Shown here piece by piece: positions 11,239-49,071 of a stretch of 60,327 bases of DNA. Position 1 is the stretch's first letter; every line of letters starts with the position of its first letter. Both the position numbers and the translations under genes were made by a program. Location: IMG/VR virus record IMGVR_UViG_3300032053_000079, positions 1-60,327 of that record; one strand, written 5' to 3'. This stretch comes from a virus (Duplodnaviria; Caudoviricetes). The notes under the pieces were generated by a model, which was not told the origin of the DNA, searched no databases, and saw only the letters and a list, made by a program, of their open reading frames with translations.

Positions 11239-14200
11239 CTAACAAGTAACATTTGTAATCAAACCTTTATTTATACCTATAACACAATTTCCAATAGTTA
11301 AATTACCAGTAATAGTGCTTCCTGCATAATAATCTAATTTGCTTGTAAAAGGATTATAAGTTGTATAAAAATTAATATTTGTAGTGTTTCCAACAGTAAA
11401 ATTATTTGTTACTAAAGAATTTAAAATATTTGAAACTGAATAACTTGTATAATTAGTATTCCCAGTTGTGTTATAAACAAAAGAATAAATACCTGCTGGA
11501 AAGATGTTTGTAAATGGATTTGATTGATTTACTCCAGATTGATATAAATTACAAGTTAATTGACTTGGACAAGAACTTCCTGTAATTGTTGAGTATGTAG
11601 ATGCTGGAATTGTCCATCCACTACTTGAATTTAAAGATAAAATATAACTTGAATTTTTATCTATTGTATAAGAATAACTAATTGTTTGATTAAAATTATT
11701 AGATGAATCATTAGCCAAGAAAGAATAATTAAATATTCCTGCACTTAATCCTATCAATGTTTTATAATAAACATTTGAAAGATTAGACATTGTATAATTT
11801 ATATTATTAAAACTTAAAATAGCTGTATCAACTTTTACATTGTCTATCCAAGTTATATTAAAATTAACATCTGAATAATACATTATTGGAGATGATGGAT
11901 TTACTGATATATTTGAATAAGTTGGTGGAACTGATTCTGTTATAATTATATTTATGTTTGAATTTCCTATGTTATTATTTGTATCATTACAAAATACATT
12001 AATTAAAACTGAACCTGCTGAAAAGTCTATTGTCCAATTTGTTGAATAATTTTGAGTTGATGAATTTACTCCATTATTTAAATTATACCAACATACACTA
12101 GGATTTAAGTCACTAGATGTATAATTGATTGAAGTTGGTCTGCTTCCATAAGTATATGTTGTTCCATTAACTGGATAAGTTATATTAACTAATGGAAGAA
12201 CATTATCTATTGTAATTAAAGTTATTCCAGCACTACTTATTAAATTCGGAGTATAAAAAGCATTACTTGTACTATTCCCAGCAAACATACTAAAATCTGG
12301 TAAAAGATTTGTTGTACTTGTACTCATATTCCAAACATTCCCATTAGCAGATAAATTCTGCCAAGTAGTATAATTCCAATTTGCCCTTCCTTTTACATAA
12401 AGTTCTTTTACTTCATCAGAAGATAAGCTTCTGTTAAATATCATTATTTCGTCTATTGAGTTGTTTGCATACATAGATAATCCTGCACTAGAATAACTTT
12501 TAACTCCAATAAAAGCATTATTTGAAATAGATAAATTTGAGAATAAACCATTATTTGCGCCAGTACCCACAGAAAGAGTTTTTGAAACTCCATCTAAATA
12601 AATAGTATAATTAGTTCCATTTGCAGTAACAATTACCTGATGCCATTGATTATTAAATAATTCAGTTCTTGTTGCACTAGTATAACCAACTCTATTTCCA
12701 ACAGAACCATCATCTCTTGCAATTGTAATTAATTCATTTGTTAAAGTTCCTGTTACTCCATCTCCAATAAAAACTGCAAATAAATAAGTTCCTGAATAAT
12801 TACCAACACTAAATAAAGTTTGAGAAGTATCTGAACTAGATTTAACCCAGAAACCTAATGAACCCTGAGAATAATTTAAATTACTTGATGAAGATGTTAA
12901 ATTAACATACCCATTCACTCCATCAAAACTTCCCCCTCTAAAATAAACCCCATTTGTTGTAGTATTCGCCCTTCCTGTTGAATTCTGAGCAGTCCCATTA
13001 TTCCTTCCCATTGCATCTTTAACTTCTCCAGTAGTCCCATTCCAAGATGCTTCATCAAAATGATAATAACTAACTAAACCATTAGTCAAACTATTTGATT
13101 GATTATAAACAACAGCAGTATCTGTTCCTGAATTATTTCCTTTTTTATCTTTTGAGTTTCCATTGTCAAATCCCCACCAGGAAACAAGAGAAGCATCATC
13201 ATAATATGAAATATCTCTGCCTTGAGAATAGATATTTGCAATTTCGCTGCTAGACAGCGACTTATTCCATATCATTACTTCGTCGATGGAGCCGTTGAAA
13301 TAAGCTTTCTTTATGGCCTTTCCAATCGTTAAAGACCAGGTATTTGTAATATCACCAATAGAACTTAAATTAATTGCAGAATAATTTATTGCATCAACAT
13401 AAGTTTTTAATATATCTCCATTAAGGTCTATTGTTCCAACAAGATAATGCCAATTACTATCATTTATTGAAGGAGTTCCTGTTGTTGCACTCCAACCAGA
13501 ATTATTTCCTCCAGTATCTTCAACAAATGCATAAGGTTTACCATTAGCATCTAGAAATAAGCCAAATCCTTGTTTACCACTTCCAATCGAACCTCCTACA
13601 ATTTTATCAATAATATCTTTATTTGGTTGGAAACTTTTTACCCAGACACTGATTGTAACTTGATTAGTAATATTCAAACTACTTCCACTTCCCACATCAA
13701 CATAACTACTAGTATTAAACTCCGCCCAATGTGTCCCTAAATCATAATCCTTATATGCACTTCCCCCTACAGACGACCCACTACCAACTACACACGAACC
13801 TGCATCCCAAGCTCCTAATCTCGCACTTATATTGCTTCCAAAAAAAGCATTAAAAGATGTAGATAAATTAACCTGATTATATCCACTTGTTATATTTACT
13901 TGTTTTATTGTCTGAGTTCCTTGTGATTTAAATCTCTTGGATTGATTATTATAAATATCTGAAATCTGTGATGAATTTAATGCAGTGTTGAATATCATTA
14001 CTTCGTCGATGGAGCCGTTGAACTTATAACTTGTAGTTGTTCCAATACCAATTACAAAATTAGATGTTGATAAAGTTCCATTATCCATAGTAATATCTTT
14101 TGTTCCTGCATTTAATCCATTAACATACATAGTCATATTACCAGTTCTATTACCAATAACTATTACATTATACCATAAATTATTTGGACTTAATGCATAA

Positions 14201-15984
14201 TTTATATCTCTCATTCCTGATGCAGTTCCACTTCCCTTTATTCTAGCAGTTAAAATATTACCAATCTGAAATAACCAAAGCCCAGATGTTTCGCTATCAA
14301 CATAAGTTCCCATTATTCCCTCAAGGCTTGTAGAATTAGTTTTATACCAAACACTTAGACTAAAATCAGATGCTCCAATTAATGTATTTACAGTCTTTCC
14401 AGTATTTATATAATTAACAATACCTGTAAATTGATAGCATCCCCCATAAACACAAGTATTATTCCAGGTCGTATTAGTCAGCGTCCCATCATTATTATTC
14501 TTTGAATAATCATAAGTTACATTGTTTGCAGTATTTTCCTGAACATCAAAAGGATAATATGCAACTAAACCAAAATTATCATAGCCATATTGTGTTCCAT
14601 TTACAAATGTTCCATTGTTTGGTCCTATTGTATCCTGTGCAACAGAAATATTTGTATTATCAAATCTCCAGGCACTTACAAGTGAAGTATCTGTATAAGT
14701 TGTATCTTTTCTTCCTAGATTATATAATGAAGTTACTTCTGTTGAATTTAATGAACGATTGAGGATTAGGATGTTGTCGAGGGAGCCGTTGACAAACCAT
14801 GAATTAGCAGAAGTACTAAAATATAACTTTGTTCCAGTATATGCACCTACACCCTCTGTATTTCGATAATAACCAATAGGAACTCCGTTTCTATAAAATG
14901 TTTGATTAAAAATATCTCCAGAAACATTAGTAACTAAAGTATAATGATTCCAACTTCTAATTATACCTGCTCCAGTTATTGGGAATGCTCTTTGTGAACC
15001 TGTGCTATTAATGTGAGAACACTGAAAAATTGTTCCTGTATTAAAACCCATATAAAATTGACTTGATTGGTCTGAATAAAGAATCATCTGATAAGATGAA
15101 CTTGAACCATGATTTGTCCAAAAAGACACTGTAAATGATTCATTAAAATTAGTTACTTTATTGTTTATAGTAACATAACCGCTGCTTCCATCAAAACTTC
15201 CATAACTATTATCATCATCTTGAAAATAAGGCAATTGAGCCTCCCGAGTTGTATAATTAAATCCTCTCCAAGGAGAAGATGTGTCGCCGATTATGTCTAA
15301 GTGACTAAAATTAGCTTCTACAGTTACATTTGTTAAAATAGCTTCAGAAAAAGTAGTAAATGCAGAAATTATATAAGTACTATTGCTCCCTAGTTTTATT
15401 TCATCAACTAAATAAGGATTTTCTATTAATTCAATGCAATTACTTGTTTTACTATCTTTATCAATTACTAGTTTAACTTCTATTTGACTATCTACTTTAG
15501 ATTTAAATGAATCAGTCTTGCTTGATTTAATAGTTGTTGGAACTTTATAATTTTCATATTCTTTTTCTTTTTGTAATTCTTTTAATTTTTCATCAGTAAG
15601 ACAATAATCTATTCTTATATTTTGACCATCTAAATGAGTAAAACTTACATCATAATAAGAATCTATGCCTGTTTGAGAACTAACTATAAACTCTCCTGTT
15701 TTATATTCTTGCTGTCCGAAGTCTAAAGGTATTGTTATTTTATTAGAAATTGGTTTTTCTATATAATCCTTTAACTTAATCCAATTCGAACAATCAACAT
15801 ATCCTTTATTATCTAAAAGATTAGGATAACAACGATTTCCAGAACTAGAAAATCTAAGACATTCCATAACTATTCCTTTTTCTTGACAAAAATGAGTTTT
15901 ATCAGAAATTTGGTAACCAATTCCAGTTAGAATTATAATTAAAGAGATTATTCCCAAACCAATCCAAGCTTTTGAATCAACCAT
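11239..15984 (-). CDS. Large membrane-anchored protein with four LamG/concanavalin-like domains and Ig-like C-terminal modules (about 1581 aa)
   Basis: Likely start ATG 15984 (MVDSKAWIGLG, TM). Four NGS(I/L)D(E/N)-type LamG motifs, GLV(A/S)YYxFD motifs, many N-x-S/T sequons. Confidence 0.85.
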   Translation of the reverse strand: MVDSKAWIGLGIISLIIILTGIGYQISDKTHFCQEKGIVMECLRFSSSGNRCYPNLLDNKGYVDCSNWIKLKDYIEKPISNKITIPLDFGQQEYKTGEFIVSSQTGIDSYYDVSFTHLDGQNIRIDYCLTDEKLKELQKEKEYENYKVPTTIKSSKTDSFKSKVDSQIEVKLVIDKDSKTSNCIELIENPYLVDEIKLGSNSTYIISAFTTFSEAILTNVTVEANFSHLDIIGDTSSPWRGFNYTTREAQLPYFQDDDNSYGSFDGSSGYVTINNKVTNFNESFTVSFWTNHGSSSSYQMILYSDQSSQFYMGFNTGTIFQCSHINSTGSQRAFPITGAGIIRSWNHYTLVTNVSGDIFNQTFYRNGVPIGYYRNTEGVGAYTGTKLYFSTSANSWFVNGSLDNILILNRSLNSTEVTSLYNLGRKDTTYTDTSLVSAWRFDNTNISVAQDTIGPNNGTFVNGTQYGYDNFGLVAYYPFDVQENTANNVTYDYSKNNNDGTLTNTTWNNTCVYGGCYQFTGIVNYINTGKTVNTLIGASDFSLSVWYKTNSTSLEGIMGTYVDSETSGLWLFQIGNILTARIKGSGTASGMRDINYALSPNNLWYNVIVIGNRTGNMTMYVNGLNAGTKDITMDNGTLSTSNFVIGIGTTTSYKFNGSIDEVMIFNTALNSSQISDIYNNQSKRFKSQGTQTIKQVNITSGYNQVNLSTSFNAFFGSNISARLGAWDAGSCVVGSGSSVGGSAYKDYDLGTHWAEFNTSSYVDVGSGSSLNITNQVTISVWVKSFQPNKDIIDKIVGGSIGSGKQGFGLFLDANGKPYAFVEDTGGNNSGWSATTGTPSINDSNWHYLVGTIDLNGDILKTYVDAINYSAINLSSIGDITNTWSLTIGKAIKKAYFNGSIDEVMIWNKSLSSSEIANIYSQGRDISYYDDASLVSWWGFDNGNSKDKKGNNSGTDTAVVYNQSNSLTNGLVSYYHFDEASWNGTTGEVKDAMGRNNGTAQNSTGRANTTTNGVYFRGGSFDGVNGYVNLTSSSSNLNYSQGSLGFWVKSSSDTSQTLFSVGNYSGTYLFAVFIGDGVTGTLTNELITIARDDGSVGNRVGYTSATRTELFNNQWHQVIVTANGTNYTIYLDGVSKTLSVGTGANNGLFSNLSISNNAFIGVKSYSSAGLSMYANNSIDEIMIFNRSLSSDEVKELYVKGRANWNYTTWQNLSANGNVWNMSTSTTNLLPDFSMFAGNSTSNAFYTPNLISSAGITLITIDNVLPLVNITYPVNGTTYTYGSRPTSINYTSSDLNPSVCWYNLNNGVNSSTQNYSTNWTIDFSAGSVLINVFCNDTNNNIGNSNINIIITESVPPTYSNISVNPSSPIMYYSDVNFNITWIDNVKVDTAILSFNNINYTMSNLSNVYYKTLIGLSAGIFNYSFLANDSSNNFNQTISYSYTIDKNSSYILSLNSSSGWTIPASTYSTITGSSCPSQLTCNLYQSGVNQSNPFTNIFPAGIYSFVYNTTGNTNYTSYSVSNILNSLVTNNFTVGNTTNINFYTTYNPFTSKLDYYAGSTITGNLTIGNCVIGINKGLITNVTC
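13269..14022. repeat. Exact 31-bp direct repeat (13269-13299 and 13992-14022); partial third copy at 14776-14792
   Basis: ATATCATTACTTCGTCGATGGAGCCGTTGAA occurs twice; GTCGAGGGAGCCGTTGA occurs once. Confidence 0.95.
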
Positions 15985-19951: not shown

Positions 19952-21001
19952 ATAAAATTAGGCAGGATACCCAAGACTTTAGGCTTGGGAGGAATGCCGT
20001 GCTTCAGATTGCATAGCTTCCTGCTTAACCTCCATAACTCTTCTTCCTTTATAATCTTTAAATTCCATAAAATTATAATACCTTTTATTAATCCACCTTG
20101 CTAAATCAATTATCTTAGGATCTCGCTTCTTTGTAGAATTTCTGTTAAATTGCATTATAAATGGTTTAACTTTCAAATCAATAAGTTTCTTAGTTCTATA
20201 CATATCCTCTTCAAATGTAGAGTTAAATCCAACCAATACATAAATCATAATATTCTGTGGTTTTATACCAACAGAAATTAATTTATTAATTCCATTAGTT
20301 ACTAACTCTTCATCTTTGATATTATCCCATGCAAAATAAAGTCTTTTTGTTTTAAATTGGTCATCTTTATAATCTACCTTTGAAAGCATTTGTGCTTTTT
20401 CTTCTGTAATTAATCTTAAATCTAAACCTTGATTAAAGCAAACTTTAATCTTATTATCTATAAAATGTTGTAACTTCTCTTTCCAATTAGGAGAAGCTAA
20501 AAAATTATTGTCTAAGAGTAAAACTTTCTTTTGTTTAATCCAAGATATATCAACATCTTTCATAATCCCTTCTTTTTCTCTAACTATACAAAACTCACAA
20601 TTTCTTATACATCCTCTTGAAGTAAATCCAATAGAATAATCTAATCCAAATTTCTCATAATCTGGTGTAATTTCTTCTATTTCTTTTGGAAGTTCAGCTT
20701 TAATATCATATCCAGAACCTCCCATAAATATCTTAGAGCCAAACCAAAAGTCTGCTTTAATAGTTGAGAGGTCTACAAAGAAAGTCTCGTGTCCTTTTTC
20801 TTCATAAAACTTTGCTAACTTCATTAAAGCTAAGTTAGGCAATTTTCCATCTACTTGAATTAATCCAATCTTAGCCATAGAAATCTCCTATTTTTAATTG
20901 ACCTTTCAGCTCTTCTGAACATTCTCTTTCAATCTGTTTGTTTTTGTTTATTTCCATAGTTGTTAAGATACCCCATCATTTATGATGTGGGAGTATGTCA
21001 T
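19948..21001 (-). mobile_element. Non-autonomous IS200/IS605-like element with radical SAM cargo
   Basis: Two GC-rich subterminal hairpins with TAAA loops and shared CTCCCA...TAAA...GGGTATC (20967-20996 and 19961-19998); ATGA at both boundaries; no tnpA or tnpB. Confidence 0.7.
19979..20878 (-). CDS. Radical SAM protein
   Basis: FTSRGCIRNCEFC (CxxxCxxC), LLDNN and QGLD motifs; N-terminal PNLALMK. Confidence 0.9.
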   Translation of the reverse strand: MAKIGLIQVDGKLPNLALMKLAKFYEEKGHETFFVDLSTIKADFWFGSKIFMGGSGYDIKAELPKEIEEITPDYEKFGLDYSIGFTSRGCIRNCEFCIVREKEGIMKDVDISWIKQKKVLLLDNNFLASPNWKEKLQHFIDNKIKVCFNQGLDLRLITEEKAQMLSKVDYKDDQFKTKRLYFAWDNIKDEELVTNGINKLISVGIKPQNIMIYVLVGFNSTFEEDMYRTKKLIDLKVKPFIMQFNRNSTKKRDPKIIDLARWINKRYYNFMEFKDYKGRRVMEVKQEAMQSEARHSSQA

Positions 21002-21748
21002 TTTTACCTCCGATTTTAATCGTTTTGTATGTCTCCTTTTAAATAAATATCTATCATTATATTAGCAATAGTATCTTTATAGTTTCCTTCAAGTGCATTA
21101 ATTAATTTTTTAAATTCAGATTCTTTTATCCAAAAAGTCTTTAAAATTAGGTTTTTGTGCTTATTTTTTTCCATTTTTAACTCCTTCAAAAAATAATCTA
21201 TCTGATTCACTTATATTTAATTCTGTATTATAAAGAGTTTTTAATATAAATTTTATATAATCCAGATATTCTCTAGCGGATTTAATACAATCGGCTTCAA
21301 AAGTTAAATTAATATCTACATTAAAATTTATCATTTTTTAAACTCTCCAACTGATTAGTATAAAAACTGATTACTTCAAAACTGACTGAATTATCAAAAG
21401 TCTTAATTATTTCAGTTAATCTTTTAATTCTTTCTTTGTTACTTAATTGTTTTTTCATATTGTAAATCTTCTATTTCTAAATTTTTTATATCTTGACTTA
21501 AATTCATAATTTTCTTTAAATCTAAATTAAGAGTTTTCATATATTGTTTAAATTCTTTTTCACTTTTCTTTTTTCCTTCAAGTTTAATACTTTGAGATAA
21601 CTCATAAAAAAGTAAACTAAGTTTATGATATTTTTCGCTTAAATACTTAAATTTATTGCTTGTTCTTATATAGGTTAAATGTGAGTCCATTTTTTAAATT
21701 TTATATTTATTTCTAAGAATTATATCAAATTTGACTATATCAAGTCTG

Positions 21749-21810
21749 AACCTCATCAGTACCGATTAAATCGGTAGACATAAAAAAATAAATTAAATTA
21801 TGTTTCGGTT
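21749..21810 (-). ncRNA. Hammerhead ribozyme, type II
   Basis: Minus strand reads AACC-GAA-ACAUAA...UUAUGU-C-UACCGA-UUUAA-UCGGUA-CUGAUGA-GGUU: full core, three stems, GUC cleavage triplet. Confidence 0.9.
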
Positions 21811-22152
21811 TTATTCTTCTTTTATACCTTTTTCTTGTTCTGTTGCCCAGTCTTCAAGATCCTTTAAAGTTGTTTCGTTAGTTAGATTAAATTCTATTTC
21901 TGTACCATCATTTGAATTAGTCCATAAAGCAACTACATTACTTTTAACCAATTCGCAATTTATAGGCATATAAAGACTAAAATTATATTCTTCAGACCAA
22001 ATATAAGTATACCCACTATTCTTATTTACTGCAACCTCACCATAAGAGTCTGTGTTTATACCTAATTCTTCAGCAATTCCCATTAAAAAAACTGCTTTCT
22101 TTCTTTCCCAGTCACACATATCATTAAATTTAAATTCCATTATTCTAAACAA
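21811..22152 (-). CDS. Hypothetical early protein directly upstream of the hammerhead
   Basis: 113-aa ORF whose stop codon abuts ribozyme stem II. Confidence 0.6.
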   Translation of the reverse strand: MFRIMEFKFNDMCDWERKKAVFLMGIAEELGINTDSYGEVAVNKNSGYTYIWSEEYNFSLYMPINCELVKSNVVALWTNSNDGTEIEFNLTNETTLKDLEDWATEQEKGIKEE

Positions 22153-22506
22153 GCCTTTTTAAATTGGTTTTCATTAAATAAAGGATTCTGTGTTTTAAAA
22201 TAGTTACTTAAATCATTTATAAGTACCATTTGCCCAATAAAACCATTAATATCTTTTTGACTTTTGCTTATTATCTTAGCTATACTATTAAAATGTTGTT
22301 TTGTTAAACCTGCCATTATCAAAGCTTTACCTCCTTACAAAAATTATAATCTTCAATATTTAAATAAGAAATATCAGATAAACAAATGATTTCATAACGA
22401 CTTATAAAATACTTAGAATCTCCTTTTAAAAGAGTATATCCATTACCATAACCTATATTAACTATATAACCTCTATTTCTCATAAGCTTTTTAAATAAAT
22501 TAATTT

Positions 22507-23046
22507 TCATTTTGCTTTTAACTCCCTTTTATTAATCCAGTCAGGAGTATTTTTAATTTTAGATTCATAAATAAGCATTTCTTTAATTTTAGGCATTAAA
22601 ACAATATAAGAAGGATTTTTATTTAAATATTCCTGGAATATAAGCAAATCTTCATAATAACCAGATATATTAAATATTTTTTGCATAACATCTTTTTTTA
22701 TAGCTCCTTCAGGAGTTTTATAACATTCTATATAAAAACTATGTATAAAATCCCCATCTTCAAAACTATAAGGATAGTCCTTAGAATAACAATCTTTTTT
22801 TAACTCACTACATAAAACAAATGTTCCAGATAATAGGTTTTTAATCTTTTTAAGTTTTGCATTTAAATCATATAAATTGTTATTATTCTCTAGATTATCT
22901 TTTAATATCTTAAAAATACACTCAGATCCTATAATTCTATTATCATTTAAGATATAAAGGTTTTTTATTTTTCTATTACATAAACCACAATTAGATTTAT
23001 TATAGTCATCTGTATATTTAACATCAATAAGTTTTAAATCATTCAT
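22507..23046 (-). CDS. Hypothetical protein with CxxC...GSEC zinc motif
   Basis: CGLC...IGSECI. Confidence 0.55.
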   Translation of the reverse strand: MNDLKLIDVKYTDDYNKSNCGLCNRKIKNLYILNDNRIIGSECIFKILKDNLENNNNLYDLNAKLKKIKNLLSGTFVLCSELKKDCYSKDYPYSFEDGDFIHSFYIECYKTPEGAIKKDVMQKIFNISGYYEDLLIFQEYLNKNPSYIVLMPKIKEMLIYESKIKNTPDWINKRELKAK

Positions 23047-23507
23047 TTTAAACCGCCATAAGCACTTAATTTAATTAAATAAGGATATTCTTTAATTAAT
23101 CCTTTTATTAAAGATTCCATTTCTAAGGTTTTAGGATCTTGCTTAAATTCCTTTTTAGTATCAAATTCTTTAAAGTGGCTATAATAAAGCTCCATTAAAC
23201 CACTAAAAGAAGCATTAAGCATATTAAGACTTATATTTCTATTAAAGAATAAAGATAATTTATTTAACATTTTAACCTCATTAAATCATTAATAAATAGA
23301 TTATTTAAATTAAGATTAGTTATTAAAGTATTACTAAAAGGTTTTAAGTATTGATAGAAAGTTTTAGTTATCATTTTTTAGATTTAAGTAATTTAATTAG
23401 ATCTTTTAAGTTAATATTTGAAGCAGTACTTAAAACTTTTACTAATTTATCATTTTTGTATATATATATTCCTTGCTTAGTACTCCAGAGCTCTATAGTT
23501 AATTTAT

Positions 23508-23957
23508 TCATTTTATTTTATCGTTAAGTTTAGTTAATTCCTCATAGATTTTAAGGATCTTATCGTTTATTTCTCTTTCTAAGTTAGTTATTCTAACTTC
23601 TATATCAGTTATCCAAGAGTCTATATGGCCCTTTATTTCATTAGTAAGTTCTTTTTTATTTGTATATACTTGTTCTTGTAAGTTATTTATTACTTCTTGT
23701 TTAAGGTCATTTAATTCTTTAGTTGCTGTAGAAATATCTAAATCTGAACGATTACTTAACGATTGCTTAACGTTCAGATTTTCTGAATTATTAAAGATTT
23801 GTTCTATTTCTTTTATATCTTTCTTAGGTTTTACCTTACCTTTTAGATAATTATGAACAGTAGCTTTACTTATTTCTATTGATTTAGCTATTTCTGAATA
23901 ACTAAAACCTTCTCCATATAGTTTTTCTATTTTATCTTGTTGTTCTTTATTTAGCAT
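23508..23957 (-). CDS. HTH plus coiled-coil regulator
   Basis: LYGEGFSYSEIAKSIEISKATVHNYL. Confidence 0.75.
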   Translation of the reverse strand: MLNKEQQDKIEKLYGEGFSYSEIAKSIEISKATVHNYLKGKVKPKKDIKEIEQIFNNSENLNVKQSLSNRSDLDISTATKELNDLKQEVINNLQEQVYTNKKELTNEIKGHIDSWITDIEVRITNLEREINDKILKIYEELTKLNDKIK

Positions 23958-24229
23958 ATTATTATTAATTATATGTTATTTATATAGTTTTCTATTTGTT
24001 TATTGATTTCTTTATGTTTATCTTTTAGTAATATGTCAGTAATAGCCTGATCTGTACTATCTTGTGATACTAAATAGTCATTAGTAATAAGACTATCTGC
24101 TAGTATTTCTTTATCTTGGTGCAGCTGTGCAAGTCCTAGACTACATAAGGATCTTACTAATAAATTATTACTGATTCCTACATTACTTATTAATGTAAGT
24201 TCTACATAATTTTTATATATTGTTATCAT

Positions 24230-24766
24230 TGTGTACCTTATTTTTATATAATTATTATAGTAATTATTAGTATATAAATCTTTCTATTGTATATAAGTAA
24301 TTATATGTATATAAAAATTCTATGTAATCTATATATAATAAGTATATAAAGATATGTATTGTCTATTATATAGTTATTATATAACACATATATTTATATA
24401 GTTATTATATGTATATTATAGAAAAATTATATACTTTCACGATCGGAAAAATAGGAATGGTGTATAGTGAGTTTCACTTTTTAGAATGTTAAATTTTTAA
24501 AAATCGATATTGGATTTCACTTTTTAGGATATAGTAATTTTAAAAAAGGAAAGTATATCGGTATCTATACAGATAGTCTTATGTAATATTGATTGTAGTA
24601 TTGTTGTATTATAATATCTTTTCTTATTACTATTTATTTATGATAAGTATTTCACTGATTGATATTAGTAGCATATTTTGATTTGAAAAATTAGGTTATA
24701 AATTTCTATAAAAAGTATATAGTAGAGTATAGTAATATTTATATAGTAGTGTTATATAATATTTAT
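24230..24766. promoter_or_regulatory. Divergent control region, candidate origin or packaging site
   Basis: Long non-coding stretch at the strand switch; nearly pure AT at 24240-24430; BRE/TATA on minus (24271-24284) and plus (about 24735-24745); repeats TTTCACTTTTTAG at 24472 and 24515. Confidence 0.6.
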
Positions 24767-25411
24767 ATGATACAAGATATGCCTAAATTAGAAAGTCCTT
24801 TCGTTAGAAAATTAAATAACAAAAATGAATATTTAGTCACACCAGAAATTACTAAAGGATGTGAGTGGGTTTTTGAAGGAAATGAAGATGAAGTTCTAGC
24901 AACTGAAAAGTTAGATGGAACTGATGTTAGTATTGTAATAGAAAATGGAATGATAAATTCTATCTGGAATAGGACTAATAGAATACCATTCTTTTGCAAA
25001 GGCAAAATGTTTATTGTTCAGGCTGTTATAGAAGCATTTGAAAGAGGGTATACAGAATTACCAGACGGACAATGGTTTGGGGAAGTTATTGGCGAGAAAT
25101 TAAATAAAAACCCATTAGAAATTAAAGGTCATGTTTGGATTCCTTTTAATACATATTGTAGAAATCATTTAGCTTATAAGTCTTGGCATAAATATCCTAA
25201 AACCTATGAAAACATAAAAAAGTGGTTTTTAGATGATATTAAAGAAGGTGGTATTTTTAGTTTGTTAATGAAGAAAAAAGGAATTGATAAAAAGCCAGAA
25301 GGAATAGTTTTTCATAATTTAAAAACAGGACAAATGGCTAAATTAAGAATAGATATGTTTGATGATTTTAAAGGTTACAGGCATAAAGAAAAGGAGAAAA
25401 ATGAAAATTAA
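24767..25411 (+). CDS. ATP-dependent RNA ligase-like nucleotidyltransferase
   Basis: Motif I TEKLDGT, motif III FGE, motif IV PEGIVF, motif V MAK; no OB domain. Confidence 0.75.
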   Translation: MIQDMPKLESPFVRKLNNKNEYLVTPEITKGCEWVFEGNEDEVLATEKLDGTDVSIVIENGMINSIWNRTNRIPFFCKGKMFIVQAVIEAFERGYTELPDGQWFGEVIGEKLNKNPLEIKGHVWIPFNTYCRNHLAYKSWHKYPKTYENIKKWFLDDIKEGGIFSLLMKKKGIDKKPEGIVFHNLKTGQMAKLRIDMFDDFKGYRHKEKEKNEN

Positions 25412-48923: not shown

Positions 48924-48996
48924 GCTAGTATGGTGTTCAATGGTAGCATAATTCTTTTGTAATGAGTGGGTTCCAGTCCAATTCTGGATACCAACT
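48924..48996 (+). tRNA. tRNA-Thr(TGT), degenerate/possible pseudo-tRNA
   Basis: T arm TCCAG/CTGGA; anticodon loop TT-TGT-AA; two acceptor-stem mismatches; T loop TCCAATT. Confidence 0.55.
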
Positions 48997-48999
48997 TAT

Positions 49000-49071
49000 G
49001 TTCCTGAAGTCTAAGTGGTTTGATGTCTGACTGTTAATCAGAAGGACTTGGTTCGACTCCAAGCAGGAACG
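49000..49071 (+). tRNA. trnN: tRNA-Asn(GTT)
   Basis: Acceptor GTTCCTG/CAGGAAC, anticodon arm TCTGA-CTGTTAA-TCAGA, T arm CTTGG-TTCGACT-CCAAG; no CCA; followed by T7. Confidence 0.92.

Follow-up and report, generated by a model that had tools for sequence, protein, structure and literature searches.

This locus raises the question of whether a short AU-rich gap between two minus-strand genes of a virus encodes a self-cleaving RNA and, if it does, what cleavage would do to the transcript that carries it. The window is the whole stretch of DNA analyzed, a virus contig of 60,327 bp with about 28% GC. A preliminary description had placed a complete type II hammerhead ribozyme at 21749-21810, within what it called the early operon of an archaeal virus. 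Judged from sequence and predicted pairing, we conclude that minus-strand 21810-21749 is a complete type II hammerhead. We give a probability of roughly 0.8 to the prediction that the element is a functional self-cleaving ribozyme.

Sequence and predicted structure

On the minus strand, 5' to 3', the ribozyme starts AACC GAA ACAUAA UUUAAUUUAUUUUU UUAUGU C and continues, after the predicted cut, with UACCGAU UUA AUCGGUA CUGAUGA GGUU. The parts are as follows.

21749..21810, minus strand: type II hammerhead ribozyme, complete, 62 nt (from sequence, RF02276, covariance model R1 and descriptor)
21810-21807, minus strand: stem II 3'-side strand AACC (11.4-11.1), which pairs with GGUU
21806-21804, minus strand: core G12 A13 A14, aligned to the core by RF02276 and R1
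21778..21803, minus strand: stem-loop III, ACAUAA (21803-21798) with UUAUGU (21783-21778)
21797-21784, minus strand: loop III, 14 nt, U-rich (from sequence)
21777, minus strand: C17, with predicted self-cleavage 3' of this base (from the hammerhead consensus position)
21776-21760, minus strand: stem-loop I, UACCGAU-UUA-AUCGGUA (from sequence and fold)
21759-21753, minus strand: core C3 U4 G5 A6 U7 G8 A9, CUGAUGA (from sequence, RF02276 and R1)
21752-21749, minus strand: stem II 5'-side strand GGUU (10.1-10.4; from sequence and fold)

The order of these parts is that of the type II topology, 11.x-GAA-III-H17-I-CUGANGA-10.x, with stems I and III looped and stem II open. Stem II is a helix of 4 bp without a loop. 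Stem III has 6 bp, including A15.1-U16.1 and C15.2-G16.2. All invariant core bases are present, and standard pairs occupy 17 of the 17 stem positions. The pairs beside the core are standard in all three stems (G21752-C21807 at 10.1-11.1, U21776-A21760 at 1.1-2.1 and A21803-U21778 at 15.1-16.1), and such pairs are the basis on which hammerhead hits were accepted in PMC3088659. C17 lies in the context GUC and is a base other than G, as is required at position 17.

Thus, the core, the stems and the GUC of the preliminary description were each found on the minus strand at the coordinates it gave, and its cleavage site between 21777 and 21776 agrees with the position of C17 in the hammerhead consensus. 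Its stem I (UACCGA/UCGGUA) is present but can be extended to 7 bp, with U21770-A21766 as the last pair and a loop of 3 nt.

Chance expectation and family score

A descriptor search of both strands of the 60,327-bp record returned one site, 21749-21810. Strict matches (stem I ≥6, stem II ≥4 and stem III ≥6) did not occur in 400 dinucleotide-preserving shuffles of the genome (0 matches). Mid-level matches (I ≥4, II ≥3, III ≥4) occurred at 0.01 per shuffled genome and relaxed matches (I ≥3, II ≥2, III ≥3) at 0.13.

It had been proposed to check the element against hammerhead models. RF02276 aligns to it end to end, but with 27.0 bits the match stays below the gathering score of 37; the E value, for a search of 251 nt, is 0.0011. 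In a search of the whole window with Rfam (gathering score; E ≤1), tRNA matches were the only ones returned; the ribozyme was absent, as was any other ribozyme class. We applied RF02276 to 20 viral loci with the same architecture (between L032 and L147) and obtained 21 hits, scoring 25.6-39.3 bits. Four of the 21 reach 37 bits and 17 fall below. A score of 27.0 bits is typical of this short-loop subclass and is therefore not evidence against the ribozyme. The RF02276 threshold misses most of the short-loop viral members, and standard annotation would overlook them.

The tRNA matches lie on the plus strand. One, at 49000-49071, scores 56.4 bits and has the anticodon loop CUGUUAA, with GUU as the anticodon by eye. 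A tRNA-like match at 48924-48996, with 28.6 bits, narrowly misses the cut-off of 29. Contrary to Rfam, ARAGORN found 0 tRNA genes in the window.

Viral hammerheads of the same architecture

We scanned IMG/VR with the bare core pattern CCGAAAC...GUC...CUGAUGAGG, which places no requirement on stems, and recovered at least 147 matches from at least 132 loci. Among the matches listed, stems I and III have at least 4 bp in 126 of 147, stem II has 3 or 4 bp in 113 of these 126, and 115 unique elements remain after removal of duplicates. Given that 126 of the 147 matches listed also have stems, we infer that such elements are abundant, real structures in phage DNA. At least 37 viral hammerheads share the architecture of the window's element, with a 17-nt stem-loop I (7 bp and 3 nt) and an open stem II of 4 bp.

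A covariance model, R1, was built from 37 aligned elements of this subclass, excluding the window. Eleven of 48 selected elements were left out of the model on account of a longer stem-loop I, misalignment by MAFFT or, in L092, a very long stem III. R1 scores the ribozyme at 50.8 bits (E about 1.5e-14, from a rough calibration); the runner-up within the window scores 14.6 bits. The match of the core to R1 is partly by construction, because the search pattern that fixed the core of the model was derived from the core of the window's element; what is independent is the length of the helices, the spacing and the preferences within stem I. In the 37-row alignment (A3), 97.9% of cells are paired, but the rows had been chosen for pairing and this value is therefore not independent support. 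The AACC/GGUU stem II is common to the window and six other viral contigs among the matches listed. These six elements, which were absent from the training of R1, score 23.6-58.2 bits with it, five of the six at 44 or more. Dozens of viral copies have the short-loop architecture, in which no pseudoknot is obvious, and it is therefore probably active as such.

In some contigs the core pattern is repeated. A single 67.6-kb IMG/VR contig (L037-L039) has eight core-pattern matches within 4.7 kb on one strand, and arrays of three to eight matches, on a single strand and between short ORFs, occur in this contig and in L058-L060, L030 and L062. A scan of metagenomes with the stem I and core pattern of the window's element found just four copies, which are GC-rich and of the L040 type.

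The second match of R1 within the window is at 2733-2771 on the plus strand (14.6 bits, E 0.029), inside the ORF at 2202-2879. It reads UAC-AGAA...C-UAUCUU-GAAA-AAGAUA-CUGAUGA-GGUA, with a hammerhead-like stem I, core and stem II and without a stem III. This match is probably due to chance.

Predicted fold and tertiary contact

The minimum-energy fold of the isolated 62 nt is the hammerhead structure, at -9.8 kcal/mol, with a z-score relative to shuffled sequences of only -1.14. The GC content of the ribozyme is 0.27, whereas among the 115 viral elements in the matches listed the lowest value is 0.38 and the median 0.65. The median fold energy of these listed viral elements is about -21.7 kcal/mol, a value slightly biased by a few rows with 2-nt loops that gave invalid energies. 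Among the matches listed, the ribozyme is the most AU-rich and least stable of the 116 elements compared. In the minimum-energy fold of a 160-nt context, stem I is retained and stems II and III are replaced. There, CUGA of the core pairs with a UCAG located 3' of stem II, which would sequester part of the core.

We looked for a pseudoknot of at least 4 bp that would join loop I to the sequence directly following stem II, a contact present in most, not all, type II members. None is evident in the ribozyme, where loop I is 3 nt long, or 5 nt with its last pair open. By eye, UUAA could pair with UUGA, with one wobble, 6 nt past stem II; in AT-rich sequence such a pairing cannot be told apart from chance. 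A loop I of 3 nt probably offers too little space for this pseudoknot, here and in the whole subclass. About 40% of all hammerheads use a pseudoknot, and the contact of loop I with the 3' tail was found critical for fast cleavage; removal of the tertiary contact lowers the rate 20- to more than 100-fold (PMC3088659).

The hexamer CAUCAG, the complement of CUGAUG in the core, occurs within 30 nt past stem II in 6 of 115 viral elements among the matches listed, whereas shuffled tails gave 0.6 on average and 4 at most. Carriers include L040, L069, L083, L104, L110 and L126, and the hexamer is often within CAUCAGAAAC. In such tails CAUCAG may pair with the core in an alternative fold and thereby mask it. 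The tail in the window has UCAG alone and not the full CAUCAG. The trimer CAG is found close to stem II (at 8 nt or less) in the window and in 56 of 115 viral copies among the matches listed, versus 13 in shuffles. Since most of this excess comes from a different subclass and its AGCC pseudoknot strand, it was not counted as support.

Genomic placement

The features around the ribozyme are as follows.

21811-22140, minus strand: upstream ORF, 109 aa from ATG (113 aa from a TTG at 22152)
21691..21748, minus strand: spacer of 58 nt between the ribozyme and the next start codon, with UCAG, repeats and a -10-like box
21439-21690, minus strand: downstream ORF, 83 aa, which would be on the 5'-OH product
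19979-20878, minus strand: gene for a protein with a radical SAM domain (phrog_9298, E 1.7e-67), located about 0.9 kb 3' of the ribozyme

Two minus-strand ORFs are separated by a gap of 120 nt, of which the ribozyme takes up the first 62; it lies on the strand of both flanking genes. The site is one of few non-coding gaps in the record. As the preliminary description had noted, the element starts right after a stop codon: the TAA at 21813-21811 abuts the first base of the ribozyme. The next ATG is 60 nt past CUGAUGAGG. Neither flanking ORF (21811-22140 or 21439-21690) has a Pfam, PHROG or NCBIfam match.

This placement, after a stop, before the next gene and on the coding strand, is the same as that of the viral hammerheads recovered from IMG/VR. 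Among the matches listed, 92 of the 112 viral elements with enough flanking sequence follow, by no more than 14 nt, the stop of an ORF with 50 or more codons, and an ORF starts within 150 nt downstream in 111 of 113 (median 27, range 2-101).

The UCAG of the spacer is complementary to CUGA of the core. Also present in the spacer are two direct TTGATATA repeats on the minus strand, 21743-21736 and 21728-21721, 15 nt apart. The second continues directly into an extended -10-like box, TGATATAAT, and the ATG at 21690 follows 28 nt later. The TTGATATA octamer is not enriched genome-wide (11 observed, 10.0 expected), and the TGATATAAT box is absent from the list returned by a scan over 21000-24800.

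Other genes were noted in the surrounding region. Homologues of the radical SAM protein, with 31-59% identity, occur in nine viral loci. The first gene of the plus-strand module, 24767-25411, is RNA ligase-like, with a marginal PF09414 score (28.6 versus 27 bits) and a match to phrog_14301, 'RNA ligase' (E 8e-14); it is conserved, with about 48% identity, in the related records L016 and L018. The minus-strand gene at 11239-15984 encodes 1581 aa with four Laminin_G_3 (concanavalin-like) domains and also matches a PHROG virion structural protein family. Given a protein of this kind on the supposed early strand, not all minus-strand genes need be early. The 'early operon' of the preliminary description is a reading from gene order alone.

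Related loci

The hammerhead is absent from the whole records of four TerL relatives (65-78% identity) and from L152. These five related records are fragments, 9-55% complete, and their early regions are not syntenic with the window. No hammerhead was found beside the homologues of the upstream gene (seven viral loci) or upstream of the single homologue found of the downstream gene (L152, 67% identity), and no credible one was found at eight loci with homologues of the radical SAM gene. Weak descriptor hits in three contigs (L009, L013 and L015) were judged to be due to chance.

The region 20900-22600 is present, whole or in small part, in two DNA runs from sediment metagenomes. A search for RNA runs holding this region found none.

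Two contigs with homologues of the upstream gene have TATATTTG-type motifs before the next gene (L001, 3330-3350; L002, 3320-3335). We take these to resemble the -7 promoter boxes of Bacteroidota.

Virus and host

The record belongs to an uncultured tailed dsDNA virus, and its genes include those for a large terminase, a Mu-like portal, an N4-gp56-type capsid protein and a tape measure protein. Also encoded are RusA, HNH-NUMOD3, a C5 methylase and a sigma-70 region-4-like HTH protein, and Shine-Dalgarno-like motifs precede 35 of 75 ORFs. Searches with tblastn using TerL and the major capsid protein gave distant matches only, including Bacteroides phages at 24% identity, and matches at this distance do not settle the host. 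A 15-kb portion compared by megablast with 50,697 phage records had no match. Prophage relatives of TerL were sought twice in GTDB representative genomes, first with the single protein and then with an alignment of five sequences, and none was found, and a protein atlas search with TerL returned viral clusters only.

The preliminary description had regarded this virus as archaeal. No archaeal hallmark was found. The sole archaeal hint is a weak, partial match of the capsid protein to that of an Altiarchaeum virus (39% identity over 22%). We consider a bacterial host more likely. We regard as improbable the alternative of a virus of a low-GC, non-halophilic sediment archaeon, with the ribozyme processing an archaeal viral early transcript. 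If it were true, canonical-core type II hammerheads would extend to tailed archaeal viruses beyond those of haloarchaea, and this AU-rich, pseudoknot-free copy would mark a lower limit of helix stability for working natural hammerheads.

Predicted processing of the transcript

Gene order suggests that the minus-strand gene run 3155-24229 would be read as long transcripts, and transcription would then pass the gap between the ORFs at 21811-22140 and 21439-21690. Stem-loops III and I would form first, and GGUU would then close stem II with AACC. The core (CUGAUGA, GAA and C17) is predicted to catalyze an internal transesterification 3' of C21777. The upstream RNA, with the stop codon of its last gene just before the ribozyme, would end in the stem III hairpin and a 2',3'-cyclic phosphate. 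The downstream RNA would carry a 5'-OH, with the 7-bp hairpin of stem I first and the next start codon 85 nt further on.

Bacterial 5'-monophosphate-dependent RNases act poorly on such ends. Given these product ends (5'-OH and hairpins), the two halves of the transcript could differ in stability and translation, and the likely consequence of cleavage would be their uncoupling in both respects. If the TGATATAAT box is a promoter, cleavage might, more speculatively, also set read-through RNA apart from the transcript that this promoter gives for the gene. An uncoupling role has been proposed, and is unproven, for phage hammerheads (PMC3088659; PMC6765202), and hammerheads arranged in tandem in prophages cut polycistronic RNA, both in vitro and in E. 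coli (PMC3088659).

Processing of a polycistronic mRNA, as the preliminary description suggested, is the best reading of an element that shares its strand with the genes on either side and lies in the 120 nt between them. The ribozyme most likely cuts a long messenger RNA in two.

Alternative explanations

The low stability of the fold could indicate a true hammerhead descendant that is slow or decaying, with poor cleavage at physiological Mg2+ and little effect on expression. AU-rich drift in a 28% GC genome would have made stems II and III marginal, and the tertiary contact would have been lost. Such decay is consistent with the lowest GC and weakest fold energy of the 116 elements compared among the matches listed, with the other pairings favored in context, and with the lack of a pseudoknot partner for the 3-nt loop I, given the 20- to more than 100-fold rate loss reported on removal of the tertiary contact (PMC3088659). 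That the element occurs as a single copy, without a conserved counterpart, fits as well. However, intact core bases, core-adjacent pairs and stem pairs (17 of 17) are unexpected for a relic in an AT-rich spacer, and the 3-nt-loop architecture recurs in dozens of viral copies, including the L037-L039 contig with its eight matches. We therefore consider decay unlikely, and prefer a working ribozyme.

Still less probable is a chance look-alike, an AT-rich spacer that fits the hammerhead descriptor and has no ribozyme function. Very many windows were scanned at the first stage, so that rare random matches surface, and AU and GU pairs are cheap in a stretch with 27% GC; the Rfam score is under threshold, and related records and flanking-gene homologues offer no comparative support. 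Against this stand the shuffled genomes (0 of 400 with a strict match, 0.01 mid-level matches per genome) and the distance between 50.8 bits for the element and 14.6 bits for the runner-up with R1. The location also argues against chance: the element is on the coding strand in a rare non-coding gap and a stop codon abuts it, as in 92 of 112 viral hammerheads among the matches listed. The preliminary description had called loop III terminator-like, and one could suppose that the stem III hairpin and U-rich tract act as a terminator or attenuator, the likeness to a hammerhead being secondary. There is a U run at 21790-21782 with a hairpin nearby, and the promoter-like TGATATAAT box lies downstream. 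Yet this run falls within the hairpin, in the loop and the 3' strand of a weak AU stem that has one G-C pair, rather than beyond it, and a terminator scan found 0 sites in 21000-24800. The intact CUGAUGA/GAA core and stems I and II would be left unexplained, and we consider a terminator very improbable. The preferred reading is thus that of a functional hammerhead.

Comparison with known systems

The ribozyme belongs to a known and common kind, the hammerheads of clan CL00010, and phage intergenic hammerheads have already been described. Type II hammerheads are very common in bacteria, where they often flank prophage genes, and one is present in the early polycistronic transcript of the haloarchaeal viruses HF1 and HF2 (PMC3088659). 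The view that such ribozymes are little described is thus not supported, as hammerheads of phages and of the HF1/HF2 early transcript were published in 2011 (PMC3088659). Among the papers listed by a literature search on hammerheads in archaeal viruses, none looked relevant by title or abstract opening.

Relative to RF02276 as described in PMC3088659, the window's element has the same circular permutation, an identical core and a stem II that is likewise open and short. Its placement between co-oriented phage genes is also the same, the flanking genes varying by phage. It differs in its score (27.0 bits, with a cut-off of 37), in having no evident consensus pseudoknot between loop I and the 3' tail, in occurring as a single copy rather than a tandem array, and in being far more AU-rich than any of 115 viral copies among the matches listed.

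The likeness is closer to the viral short-loop subclass, with which the element shares helix lengths, the 17-nt stem-loop I and a position close after a stop codon. Stem I differs from that of L040 (UACCGAU-UGU-GUCGGUA) at one base outside the loop. Members of the subclass mostly close loop I with G-C and then U.G (33 and 24 of 37), whereas the window has A-U and then U-A (2 and 3 of 37). In the window, stem III is rich in AU and has a loop of 14 nt, and the next start is 60 nt away, as compared with a median of 27 in the viral elements among the matches listed.

The ribozyme thus adds an unusually AU-rich, well-formed example to the large and functionally unexplained set of phage intergenic hammerheads. 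For the annotation of this virus it provides a probable site of RNA processing, and it is a possible test case for the minimum helix stability of a natural hammerhead.

The hammerhead of HF1 and HF2 (HHphage; PMC3088659) resembles the window's element in that it closely precedes a gene, within the early polycistronic region of a tailed virus genome, and a mapped 5' end is within 3 nt of its cleavage site. HHphage has a core insertion, a very high need for Mg2+ and a haloarchaeal host, whereas the core in the window is canonical.
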